Sequence record: NC_041919.1
DNA: 64,000 nt
Direction: 5' to 3' (one strand)
From: Escherichia phage HP3
Numbering within the stretch: the first letter of the stretch is position 1; each line of letters starts with the position of its first letter. The notes beneath the pieces are model-generated. The model had not been told where the DNA came from. It made no database searches and was given only the letters and a program-made list of their open reading frames with translations. Both the position numbers and the translations under genes were made by a program. Of this stretch, positions 17,693 to 21,069 are shown piece after piece.

Positions 17693-18166
17693 ATGTTATT
17701 GACTGGCAAATTATACAAAGAAGAAAAACAGAAATTTTATAATGCACAAAACGGTAAATGCTTAATTTGCCAACGAGAACTAAATCCTGATGTTCAAGCT
17801 AATCACCTTGACCATGATCATGAATTAAATGGACCAAAAGCAGGAAAGGTACGTGGATTGCTTTGTAATCTCTGCAATGCCGCAGAAGGTCAAATGAAGC
17901 ATAAATTTAATCGTTCTGGCTTAAAGGGACAAGGTGTTGATTATCTTGAATGGTTAGAAAATTTACTTACTTATTTAAAATCCGATTACACCCAAAATAA
18001 TATTCACCCTAACTTTATTGGAGATAAATCAAAGGAATTTTCTCGTTTAGGAAAAGAGGAAATGATGGCTGAGATGCTTCAAAGAGGATTTGAATATAAT
18101 GAATCTGACACTAAAACACAGTTAATAGCTTCATTTAAGAAGCAGCTTAGAAAGAGTTTAAAATGA
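17693..18166 (+). CDS. 49: endonuclease VII, Holliday junction resolvase (157 aa)
   Basis: 157 aa; Cys/His cluster CLICQ..HLDHDH..CNLCN typical of T4 endo VII. Confidence 0.9.
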   Translation: MLLTGKLYKEEKQKFYNAQNGKCLICQRELNPDVQANHLDHDHELNGPKAGKVRGLLCNLCNAAEGQMKHKFNRSGLKGQGVDYLEWLENLLTYLKSDYTQNNIHPNFIGDKSKEFSRLGKEEMMAEMLQRGFEYNESDTKTQLIASFKKQLRKSLK

Positions 18167-19980
18167 CAATTGAAAAAGAAATTGAAGGATTGATTCATAA
18201 AACTAATAAAGACCTTTTGAACGAGAATGCTAATAAAGATTCTCGTGTTTTTCCAACTCAACGGGACCTTATGGCTGGTATTGTGTCTAAACACATTGCC
18301 AAAAATATGGTCCCGTCTTTTATTATGAAAGCGCATGAAAGCGGAATTATTCATTTCCATGATATTGATTATTCCCCTGCTCTTCCATTTACTAATTGTT
18401 GTTTAGTAGATTTAAAAGGAATGCTTGAGAACGGATTTAAGCTTGGTAATGCGCAGATTGAAACTCCTAAATCAATCGGTGTTGCTACTGCAATTATGGC
18501 ACAAATTACTGCACAGGTTGCTTCCCATCAATATGGCGGAACGACTTTTGCGAATGTAGATAAAGTACTTTCTCCTTATGTTAAACGCACATATGCAAAA
18601 CATATTGAGGATGCAGAAAAATGGCAAATCGCTGATGCGTTGAATTATGCTCAATCTAAAACAGAAAAAGACGTATACGATGCATTCCAAGCTTATGAAT
18701 ATGAAGTAAATACTCTCTTTAGTTCAAACGGACAAACACCTTTTGTAACAATTACATTTGGTACGGGAACTGACTGGACTGAACGAATGATTCAGAAAGC
18801 AATTCTGAAAAATCGTATTAAAGGTCTTGGTCGTGATGGGATAACTCCTATTTTCCCTAAGCTTGTTATGTTTGTTGAAGAAGGTGTTAATCTTTATAAA
18901 GACGATCCGAACTATGATATTAAGCAGCTTGCTCTAGAGTGTGCAAGCAAAAGGATGTATCCTGATATTATTTCAGCTAAGAACAATAAAGCTATCACTG
19001 GTTCATCTGTTCCTGTTTCTCCAATGGGTTGCCGTAGTTTCTTGAGCGTATGGAAAGATTCGACTGGTAATGAAATTCTTGATGGACGTAATAATCTTGG
19101 TGTTGTAACACTGAATCTTCCTCGTATTGCGTTGGATTCTTATATTGGAACACAGTTCAATGAACAGAAATTTGTTAAATTATTCAATGAGCGAATGGAT
19201 TTATGTTTTGAAGCTTTGATGTGTAGAATTAGTTCCTTAAAAGGAGTTAAAGCGACTGTTGCTCCTATTCTTTACCAAGAAGGTGCATTCGGGGTTCGTC
19301 TTAAACCTGATGACGATATAATTGAGTTATTTAAAAATGGTAGAAGTTCAGTGTCTTTAGGATACATTGGTATTCACGAATTGAATATTCTTGTCGGTCG
19401 TGATATTGGACAGGAAATTTTAACTAAAATGAATGCTCGTCTTAAACAGTGGACTGAAAGAACTGGGTTTGCTTTTAGCTTGTATTCTACTCCTGCTGAA
19501 AACCTTTGCTATCGCTTCTGTAAACTTGATACAGAAAAATATGGAAGTGTAAAGGATGTTACTGATAAAGGCTGGTACACTAACAGTTTCCATGTTTCAG
19601 TAGAAGAAAATATTACTCCGTTTGAAAAGATTTCTCGCGAAGCCCCGTATCATTTCATTGCAACAGGTGGTCACATTTCTTATGTTGAACTTCCTGATAT
19701 GAAAAATAACTTAAAAGGTCTTGAGGCTGTATGGGATTATGCTGCACAACATTTAGATTATTTTGGTGTTAATATGCCAGTAGATAAATGTTTTACGTGT
19801 GGAAGTACCCATGAAATGACTCCTACTGAAAACGGGTTTGTTTGTTCTATTTGTGGAGAAACTGATCCTAAAAAGATGAACACAATAAGAAGAACATGCG
19901 GTTATTTGGGAAACCCGAACGAACGCGGATTTAATCTCGGTAAAAATAAAGAAATCATGCATAGGGTTAAACACCAATGA
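18163..19980 (+). CDS. nrdD: anaerobic ribonucleoside-triphosphate reductase NrdD (605 aa), intron-less
   Basis: 605 aa continuous ORF; C-terminal glycyl-radical motif RRTCGYLG and Cys cluster CFTCGS..CSICGE. Confidence 0.95.
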   Translation: MTIEKEIEGLIHKTNKDLLNENANKDSRVFPTQRDLMAGIVSKHIAKNMVPSFIMKAHESGIIHFHDIDYSPALPFTNCCLVDLKGMLENGFKLGNAQIETPKSIGVATAIMAQITAQVASHQYGGTTFANVDKVLSPYVKRTYAKHIEDAEKWQIADALNYAQSKTEKDVYDAFQAYEYEVNTLFSSNGQTPFVTITFGTGTDWTERMIQKAILKNRIKGLGRDGITPIFPKLVMFVEEGVNLYKDDPNYDIKQLALECASKRMYPDIISAKNNKAITGSSVPVSPMGCRSFLSVWKDSTGNEILDGRNNLGVVTLNLPRIALDSYIGTQFNEQKFVKLFNERMDLCFEALMCRISSLKGVKATVAPILYQEGAFGVRLKPDDDIIELFKNGRSSVSLGYIGIHELNILVGRDIGQEILTKMNARLKQWTERTGFAFSLYSTPAENLCYRFCKLDTEKYGSVKDVTDKGWYTNSFHVSVEENITPFEKISREAPYHFIATGGHISYVELPDMKNNLKGLEAVWDYAAQHLDYFGVNMPVDKCFTCGSTHEMTPTENGFVCSICGETDPKKMNTIRRTCGYLGNPNERGFNLGKNKEIMHRVKHQ

Positions 19981-20609
19981 ATTATGACAGAATCTATTCA
20001 AATCTAGTTAATTCTGCTGAACACCCATCTAAGCCCCGTCAAACTAAAGCCGGGTATGAACTTCATCATATAATTCCAAGAAGTATGGGTGGTTCAGATG
20101 ATTTAGACAACTTAGTATTTTTAACTTATAAGGCCCACTATACTGCTCACCATTTATTGGCTAAAATATATGGTGGAAAGATGTATGATGCATATTGGAT
20201 AATGAGTAATAGTAAGCATAGAAAAGTTACTTCTTCACAATACGCGTATGCAAAAGCTAAGAAATTTGAAAATCAGCGTGGCGCAAAAAGAAGCGATAAA
20301 ACTAAGAAGCTAATGAGCATAGCTAGGTCTAAAGTAACTCTTCCTGATGATTTTGGAAAAAGGATATCTGATGGGCTAACAGGAAGAACTTTGTCTACTA
20401 GTCATAAAGAGCATATCAAAAATAGTTCTAGAAATCGCTTTAACACCAAAACGGTTATTGGCTATTCACCAGACGGAAATACAATAGAACTAACTGGAGC
20501 AACTGAAATAAGAAATGCAGGATTTTTTCATTCTGCTGTTTATAAATGTTGCAAAGGAATTCAATCTATTCATAAGGGATATACTTGGAAATATAAAGAT
20601 GAATTATGA
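19977..20609 (+). CDS. HNH homing endonuclease (210 aa)
   Basis: HNH motif ELHHIIPRSMGGSDDLDNLVFLTYKAHYTAHH; C-terminal NUMOD-like DNA-binding repeats; starts in ATGA overlap with nrdD stop. Confidence 0.8.
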   Translation: MNYDRIYSNLVNSAEHPSKPRQTKAGYELHHIIPRSMGGSDDLDNLVFLTYKAHYTAHHLLAKIYGGKMYDAYWIMSNSKHRKVTSSQYAYAKAKKFENQRGAKRSDKTKKLMSIARSKVTLPDDFGKRISDGLTGRTLSTSHKEHIKNSSRNRFNTKTVIGYSPDGNTIELTGATEIRNAGFFHSAVYKCCKGIQSIHKGYTWKYKDEL

Positions 20610-21069
20610 TAGAATTTATCCATGCGATTTCGTTAACGGCCCTGGATGTAGGGTCGTTCTCTTCGTCACTGGATGTTTGCATAAATGCGAAGGTTGTTAT
20701 AATCGTAGTACTTGGAATGCTCGTAACGGACAGTTATTCACTATGAATACCGTTAAAGAACTTGCGTCCCATTTAAGCAAATCGTATATCCAAGGCCTTA
20801 CCTTAACCGGTGGTGACCCACTTTATCCACAGAACCGAGAAGAGATTTCAAATTTAGTTTCTTGGGTTAAAGCAAGATTTCCTGAGAAAGACATTTGGTT
20901 GTGGACAGGATATAAGTTTGAAGATATTAAACAACTAGAAATGCTTAAATATGTTGATGTTATTATTGATGGGAAGTATGAGAAAAATCTTCCGACCAAA
21001 AAGCTGTGGCGAGGATCAGATAATCAGCGACTTTGGTCAAATACCGATGGGGTGTGGACACATGATTAA
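20599..21069 (+). CDS. nrdG: anaerobic RNR activase NrdG (156 aa)
   Basis: Radical-SAM CxxxCxxC (CLHKCEGC); 156 aa as T4 NrdG; ATG 20599 inside track ORF 20515-21069. Confidence 0.9.
   Translation: MNYDRIYPCDFVNGPGCRVVLFVTGCLHKCEGCYNRSTWNARNGQLFTMNTVKELASHLSKSYIQGLTLTGGDPLYPQNREEISNLVSWVKARFPEKDIWLWTGYKFEDIKQLEMLKYVDVIIDGKYEKNLPTKKLWRGSDNQRLWSNTDGVWTHD

Follow-up and report, generated by a model that had tools for sequence, protein, structure and literature searches.

The homing endonuclease gene mobC at the nrdD-nrdG junction of Escherichia phage HP3 and the probable origin of its nrdG-like 5′ end

Our analysis of a 64,000-nucleotide (nt) stretch of the genome of Escherichia phage HP3 (NC_041919.1; hereafter the window) centred on three closely packed plus-strand open reading frames (ORFs): nrdD, which encodes the large subunit of the anaerobic ribonucleotide reductase (RNR), an ORF of the HNH type, and nrdG (Table 1). 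The HNH ORF opens with ATGAATTATGACAGAATCTAT and nrdG with ATGAATTATGATAGAATTTAT, both of which encode MNYDRIY. A first-pass annotation, made from the sequence alone, had called the ORF an HNH homing endonuclease, had noted that its ATG overlaps the nrdD stop and that it shares this heptapeptide with nrdG, and had proposed that it captured the nrdG start. The overlap and the shared peptide were confirmed by the coordinates and by a repeat 622 nt away, and the assignment to the homing endonucleases is upheld by Pfam, by the phrog_655 family and by the annotation of phage T4. The ORF is no new element, as it is the already catalogued T4 gene mobC. We describe mobC here as a selfish, free-standing HNH homing endonuclease cassette that lacks a promoter and lies where nrdD meets nrdG in a T4-like phage, and we consider it likely that its left junction is an in-register joint of two look-alike 5′ ends.

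Table 1. Features of the nrdD-mobC-nrdG region in the window (positions in nt; lengths of products in amino acids, aa)
Feature	Position	Strand	Remarks
nrdD	18163-19980	+	605-aa ORF, intron-less; Pfam NRDD, E=1.3e-171
ATGA overlap (nrdD stop TGA, mobC start ATG; context CAATGA)	19977-19980	+	
mobC, free-standing HNH homing endonuclease gene	19977-20609	+	210 aa; orthologue of T4 mobC (NP_049689)
24-nt direct repeat, upstream copy (mobC codons 1-8, MNYDRIYS)	19977-20000	+	nrdG-like DNA, also the family-typical N-terminus
HNH (beta-beta-alpha-metal) catalytic core, residues 25-58 (GYELHHIIPRSMGGSDDLDNLVFLTYKAHYTAH)	20049-20150	+	Pfam HNH
Putative C-terminal DNA-binding module (I-HmuI NUMOD-like helix-turn-helix; ...HKGYTWKY)	20439-20597	+	Sub-threshold matches
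Overlap of mobC 3′ end (..K D E L stop) and regenerated nrdG start, 11 nt (ATGAATTATGA)	20599-20609	+	
24-nt direct repeat, downstream copy (true nrdG start, MNYDRIYP)	20599-20622	+	
Co-converted nrdG tract	20599-20910	+	30-nt bin identities
nrdG, anaerobic RNR activase	20599-21069	+	156 aa; Pfam Fer4_12, E=2e-50, and Radical_SAM; T4 annotation

With Escherichia phages HP3.1 and HP3.2 the region shares 100% DNA identity, and with T4 97.8% across 1.8 kb; between its nrdD and nrdG genes T4 has the ORF annotated as mobC, 'homing endonuclease, H-N-H family'. The two proteins share 209 of 210 aa, the sole difference being S142 here and N in T4. In T4, mobC (formerly ORF 55.10) likewise sits between nrdD and nrdG, overlaps the nrdD stop in ATGA and shows the 24-nt repeat, so that the first-pass annotation erred where it implied that the insert is absent from T4. 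It was right that nrdD is intron-less here: HP3 has one uninterrupted 605-aa ORF, whereas T4 nrdD consists of two joined exons around a group I intron encoding I-TevII. As the intron is present in T4 and missing here, the nrdD intron and mobC have been inherited independently in the HP3 lineage.

MobC belongs to the HNH nuclease superfamily (PF01844, score 26.9 bits, cutoff 21.4), and its residues 28-58 align with the HNH motifs of nucleases of solved structure, among them a group II intron maturase, Cas8f-HNH and colicin and pyocin DNases. The 'homing endonuclease' family phrog_655 matches residues 1-209 (E=3.9e-43), which makes MobC a member of that family, and the HNH core is intact. The C-terminus gave weak matches only (PF22083, E=0.043, below cutoff; PDB 1u3e over residues 118-171, E=0.34), and its GYxWKY ending is also present in other members of the MobC family and in a second HNH cassette described below. 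The structure 1u3e is that of I-HmuI of the Bacillus phage SPO1, which combines an HNH domain with a C-terminal helix-turn-helix and whose ending ...HKGYTFRYK resembles ...HKGYTWKYK of MobC; I-HmuI is, however, an intron-encoded nicking enzyme, and the similarity, at these sub-threshold E-values, is weak. A relative from the same family is MobE of T4, a free-standing HNH endonuclease which has a similar N-terminus, is promoter-less and, like MobC, lies in an RNR operon, where its start overlaps the stop of the upstream RNR gene. Unlike MobC, MobE lies between nrdA and nrdB and is experimentally active, cutting nrdB, according to the table of a 2010 review of T4 mobile elements. Its N-terminal codons do not resemble those of nrdB (MSTVFNT), hence there is no repeat, and its C-terminus is of the zinc-finger type (CPHCGK...) instead of the ...GYTWKY ending of MobC. 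The same review lists mobC among the free-standing HNH genes, with nrdG/nrdD as its location; it calls the gene promoter-less and carried on host transcripts, and it also mentions embedded promoters. On the latter our promoter and terminator scan is uninformative, as promoter-like sites between 19400 and 21300 showed no enrichment (7 found, 7.6 expected from shuffles). Within the 3′ part of mobC, at 20517-20546 and about 60 nt upstream of the nrdG start, the sequence GCAGGATTTTTTCATTCTGC and the T-rich tail that follows it resemble a terminator hairpin.

A repeat search identified the 24-nt direct repeat as the longest in the region, its copies being spaced by 622 nt. Over the seven codons the starts of the HNH ORF and of nrdG agree at 19 of 21 nt (21 of 24 with the next codon), and both differences within the 21 nt are synonymous. 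When the 21-mer was searched with up to three mismatches, only the two sites were found in the window and none in any of 100 shuffles. This within-window identity is uninformative with regard to descent, since two AT-rich stretches encoding one and the same peptide would be expected to agree this well. The alleles of other genomes provide the informative comparison.

Such a comparison starts from junctions that lack the insert. In RB51 and U5 the nrdG ATG lies in the same ATGA as the nrdD stop, following an identical ...GGGTTAAACACCA (in RB51, L002, the last nrdD position is 2081 and the first of nrdG is 2078). The assumption of the first-pass annotation that the nrdG ATG had once lain on the nrdD stop thus proved correct, exactly at the position now taken by the mobC ATG, and the complete nrdG 5′ end at 20599 agrees with its claim that the start was regenerated downstream. 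About 844 phage records hold an nrdD-nrdG junction. mobC occurs in 30 of them (27 of the Tequatrovirus type and three Klebsiella Jiaodaviruses), a second HNH endonuclease of 279 aa in 32 (Ozark, PST, UFV-AREG1 and others; 10 of the 32 are Klebsiella phages), and the GIY-YIG gene segH in 73; among 60 evenly spaced junction rows that were sampled, 40 were empty and of the Tequatrovirus type. mobC is therefore polymorphic at one precise site, with intact empty sites in RB51 and U5, and this pattern of presence and absence is that of homing endonuclease genes at a hotspot. Apart from mobC itself, a tblastn search with MobC, the second HNH endonuclease and SegH detected no further gene resembling any of the three in the window.

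The mobC genes of two phage genera bear on the descent of the 5′ end of the gene. Besides the Tequatrovirus-type phages, mobC is found in the Klebsiella Jiaodaviruses Boboto, Wolf_ER13 and Shark_ER15. In this genus nrdD and nrdG are separated by a 225-nt ORF, and nrdG of the insert-free member KP179 opens with ATGAATTTCGACAGAATCTACCCTTCT (MNFDRIYPS). Boboto mobC opens with ATGAATTTCGACAGAATCTAT, followed by TCAAAT, and its first 20 nt are identical at 20 of 20 positions to the local nrdG allele (ATGAATTTCGACAGAATCTA, MNF...), whereas the nrdG that follows Boboto mobC begins in the T4-type form (ATGAATTATGATAGAATTTATCCATGC). In all three Jiaodavirus records mobC codons 1-7 follow the nrdG allele of the flanking lineage. 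Nucleotides 1-17 of the T4 and HP3 mobC are identical (17/17) to the U5-type Tequatrovirus nrdG allele, and nt 10-20 (11/11) to the KP179 allele. Given that the mobC 5′ ends match the local nrdG alleles in both genera, the junction between host-lineage DNA and cassette DNA lies within the first seven mobC codons. The sequences upstream of the mobC ATG are unrelated between Tequatrovirus and Jiaodavirus, so the short nrdG-like stretch is the only left homology arm that would have been available for a transfer between the genera. The proposal that the nrdG start had been captured consequently stands in one part, namely that the first ~20 nt are of the nrdG type and in Jiaodavirus correspond to the host allele, and falls in the other, as the heptapeptide itself is not diagnostic of nrdG.

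The flanks of mobC are mosaic, and the divergence lies entirely on the nrdG side. The last 300 nt of the T4 and HP3 nrdD are essentially those of RB51 (28-30 identities per 30-nt bin). Bins of the same size, computed on T4 nrdG, which is 98.9% identical to nrdG of the window, showed that nrdG from nt 1 to ~310 is Jiaodavirus-like and unlike that of the insert-free Tequatroviruses, with a breakpoint at about nt 300-330: nt 121-330 are 92% identical to KP179 and 62% to RB51, and nt 331-471 are ~100% identical to RB51 and ~66% to KP179. A donor-type nrdG tract is also found in Boboto, where it is T4-like and spans ~120 nt, and next to the second HNH cassette, where it spans 30-60 nt. Co-conversion of flanking markers, as looked for in a homing gene, is thus present. 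Since all of the divergence is on this side, it suggests that cleavage and repair were centred in the 5′ end of nrdG and that a Jiaodavirus-like source gave the T4 lineage mobC along with ~310 nt of nrdG. Further exchange at the junction is seen in Shigella phage SHFML-11 (L013, 820-1600), in which an nrdD end of the segH type is joined to the mobC cassette at a common 10-nt CATGCATAGG. Here mobC lies 12 nt downstream of the nrdD stop and does not overlap it, and ~70 nt of the nrdG 5′ end are pieced together from three alleles, with an allele switch within 40 nt.

The second HNH cassette (Ozark, L003, 2078-2917; ValerieMcCarty03, L006, 2438-3274), which is labelled 'mobC' in PST, provides a parallel at the same junction. 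Its endonuclease opens with 40 nt of a Tequatrovirus nrdG allele in Ozark (MNYDRFYPCDFVN) and with 40 of 40 nt of the Jiaodavirus allele in ValerieMcCarty03 (MNFDRIYPSDFVN). Both proteins then continue with DKL(A/S)..., have no alternative in-frame start before the HNH motif, and are followed by a cassette-type nrdG start (MNYDRIYPCCFVNG). The paralogue P0165 (RB68 type) has its own methionine and ~19 residues in place of the 13 nrdG codons of the second cassette. As judged from these sequences, the endonuclease of the second cassette has lost its own start and is translated from the resident nrdG start, with 13 nrdG codons unambiguously fused to it in two genera. It shares with MobC the family phrog_655, the junction and the ending ...GY(N/T)WKY..EL, which terminates 11 nt into the regenerated nrdG start. 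It differs from MobC in that the two are 38% identical over 60 aa only, in its length of 279 aa, in carrying 13 instead of seven nrdG codons and in lacking the native first ~19 residues; position 27 of the phrog_655 profile corresponds to residue 1 of MobC and to residue ~24 of the second-cassette protein.

These comparisons show that mobC occupies the exact translational slot of nrdG, begins with ~20 nt of nrdG type that vary with the host genus, travels with a replacement nrdG 5′ end and is accompanied by co-conversion of the adjoining nrdG. The explanation that we regard as likely is that of the T4 mobC cassette with an in-register joint on its left side. This joint would have arisen, and would since have been re-used, by in-register recombination between the MNYx[K/R]IY 5′ end of the endonuclease family and the MNYDRIY 5′ end of nrdG, and the shared heptapeptide would be partly a coincidence of two conserved N-termini and partly real descent from the resident nrdG. 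Translation may be coupled from nrdD to mobC to nrdG by termination and reinitiation at the overlapping stops and starts. During co-infection MobC would cleave genomes that lack mobC, within or close to the 5′ end of nrdG, and repair off the mobC-carrying genome would copy mobC along with 120-310 nt of adjoining nrdG; cleavage and repair of this kind would account for the spread of the gene. Where the upstream gene differs, as between Tequatrovirus nrdD and the 225-nt ORF of Jiaodavirus, the short nrdG-like 5′ stretch would serve as the sole left homology arm. One-sided repair would then create the duplication: resident nrdG to the left of the break would be kept, and the donor would contribute the endonuclease and a whole nrdG 5′ end, with the right side repaired homologously in nrdG and the left side by the short-homology joint. 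If this holds, the length of the repeat would mark the position of the break.

Several points weigh against this reading. The first concerns the family to which MobC belongs. We compared 156 representatives with an HNH motif near the N-terminus, which comprise the best 150 of 13,297 relatives from an exhaustive profile-free search and those of an earlier homologue search. The consensus built from 125 aligned N-termini of these MobC-family representatives is M-N-Y-Q-[K/R]-I-Y-[D/N]-x-L-I-x-[K/R]-A, and residues 1-14 of MobC (MNYDRIYSNLVNSA) match it in register, so that MobC bears the family motif. Six of the seven residues shared with nrdG are the commonest or second commonest in the family at their positions, and only D4 is rare (1/125). 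Because of this, and because one member that is remote from any nrdG has the very same heptapeptide, identity of the heptapeptide at the protein level is weak evidence of capture. In addition, the table of the 2010 review lists the activity of MobC as 'ND' and its target as 'unknown', and no cleavage or homing data for MobC and no mention of the codon duplication were found in the literature searched, which consisted of reviews and reference-list mentions, with the 2005 primary paper on the junction outside its coverage. The initial insertion event and the direction of the inter-genus transfer, as we propose them, rest on few genomes. Finally, gene conversion between the two nearby copies after insertion could yield the same nucleotide pattern.

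The weight of the family motif can be judged by asking how much of the resemblance would be expected by coincidence alone, that is, if MobC simply had its family N-terminus, the boundary of the cassette lay at or upstream of the ATG, and nothing but ATGA, and no nrdG codons, had been duplicated. Among the 156 representatives 85 begin with MNY, 57 with MNY..IY and 25 with MNY.RIY. The single one that begins with exactly MNYDRIY, P0069, lies between baseplate genes of the gp5-lysozyme and gp6 types, not near nrdG. The first-pass annotation had taken the heptapeptide as a mark of nrdG and had itself stated that this would fail if the same N-terminal codons turned out to be unrelated to nrdG in related phages, and P0069 is such a case. 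MobE of LZ7, between nrdA and nrdB, begins with MNYQNVY, and the UPEC03 endonuclease with MNYKRIY beside an unrelated gene. A MobC homologue in the unrelated 177-kb Klebsiella phage RCIP0052 (L009, 1201-2330; 44% identical, MNYQKIY...KGYTWRFE) has an nrdG (MNYIRIYNMDVVNGKG), 58% identical to that of the window, as its immediate downstream neighbour, and it retains the canonical N-terminus as well as its own 26-nt spacer, with no nrdD immediately upstream. As this homologue abuts nrdG, the association of the MobC clade with nrdG is long-standing, and RCIP0052 plausibly represents the donor-type arrangement. A more general caution is that, when a homing endonuclease and the gene beside it share a short N-terminal stretch, this can be a family motif and not a duplication. 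We nevertheless regard coincidence alone as unlikely, as the Jiaodavirus mobC start (ATGAATTTCGAC, MNF) is identical to its local nrdG allele at 20 of 20 nt and the Tequatrovirus start (ATGAATTATGAC) at 17 of 17, D4 is found in just one of the 125 canonical N-termini, and the sister cassette at this junction plainly uses nrdG codons. The opposite extreme, which was the proposal of the first-pass annotation, is that a start-less fragment was joined at random, in frame, to codon 7 of nrdG and that the family motif is irrelevant. The second HNH cassette did just this, with 13 nrdG codons followed by a truncated native N-terminus and no internal start. For MobC we find such a joint improbable, even more so than pure coincidence: its residues 1-14 stand in the exact family register (Y7, L10, V11, A14), neither extended nor truncated, residue 1 falls on position 27 of phrog_655, where in the other cassette the canonical motif begins past the extension, and a random joint would rarely keep such a register.

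The possibility that mobC entered with its own MNYx[K/R]IY and that gene conversion across the 622 nt later evened out the two copies has in its favour that T4-type phages are highly recombinogenic and that conversion tracts in the nrdG 5′ region are short and patchy, as illustrated by the allele switch in SHFML-11. The alleles themselves make this course of events very unlikely. The upstream copy fits the nrdG alleles of other lineages no worse, or better, than its own downstream copy: it agrees at 19 of 21 nt with the downstream copy, at 19 of 21 with U5 and at 18 of 21 with KP179, with mismatches at different positions. In Boboto 4 of 21 positions distinguish the two copies, while the upstream one is identical at 20 of 20 to the local empty-site allele. 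A direct repeat flanking an insert is also what a transposon-like insertion with target-site duplication would leave. We rejected such an event, whose probability we consider negligible, as the cassette ends bear no terminal inverted repeats, no transposase is present, and the protein is of an HNH homing endonuclease family. Furthermore, the length of the repeat varies with the cassette (it measures 21-24 nt at mobC and 40 nt at the second HNH cassette, and segH has no such repeat), whereas the right boundary is constant.

Returning to the in-register joint, a broader and more tentative idea is that the duplicated nrdG codons are a fossil of the first invasion of a target by free-standing homing endonuclease genes; we think this possible, though rather doubtful. 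A break in the nrdG 5′ end would have been repaired homologously on its right side off a donor consisting of endonuclease and nrdG, and on its left side by an in-frame illegitimate or micro-homology joint. Cleavage by MobC would be expected at about nt 21-24 of nrdG; for the second cassette it would fall at about nt 40, where the conserved VNGPG motif is encoded. The endonucleases would be obligately start-less and translated from the initiation region of the target gene, and the coincidence between MNYxRIY and the NrdG N-terminus would have made nrdG an easy landing site.

mobC has been known in T4 for decades and is no new element; the anatomy of its junction adds modest new detail. It places mobC, the second HNH cassette and segH at a three-way homing hotspot, provides examples of endonuclease ORFs translated from the start codon of the resident target gene, and gives concrete predictions for the cleavage site of MobC. 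It also yields evidence that cassettes have passed from one phage genus to another, with no left homology arm other than 20-40 nt of the target gene.

The third occupant of the junction, SegH (LZ2, T6 and ~70 others), sits at the same place as mobC and its stop likewise overlaps the nrdG ATG; unlike mobC, it belongs to another nuclease family and shows no duplication of nrdG codons. segH opens with MHRYYIIYKITN, at the end of an nrdD whose 3′ end is recoded. Its start, ATG CAT AGG (MHR), is identical to the nrdD codons M-H-R found in the standard nrdD allele 12 nt ahead of its stop (LZ2, L007, 1450-1600; T6, L008, 1060-1260), and the cassette brings a recoded nrdD C-terminus, ...KEMVKRVKHA versus the standard ...KEIMHRVKHQ. 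It could reflect a capture and replacement at nrdD, as a mirror image of that at nrdG. Among the insert-free phages, U5 (L014, 461-520) and ESh24 carry a rare PCCFVNG allele of nrdG that is elsewhere found after the second HNH cassette or the T6 segH; these junctions may be ancestral resistant alleles or precise excisions via the direct repeat. The small ORF between nrdD and nrdG of the Jiaodaviruses (Boboto, L004, 2047-2271; KP179, L005, 1748-1966), which has no counterpart in the Tequatroviruses, is annotated as MazG-like in one record.

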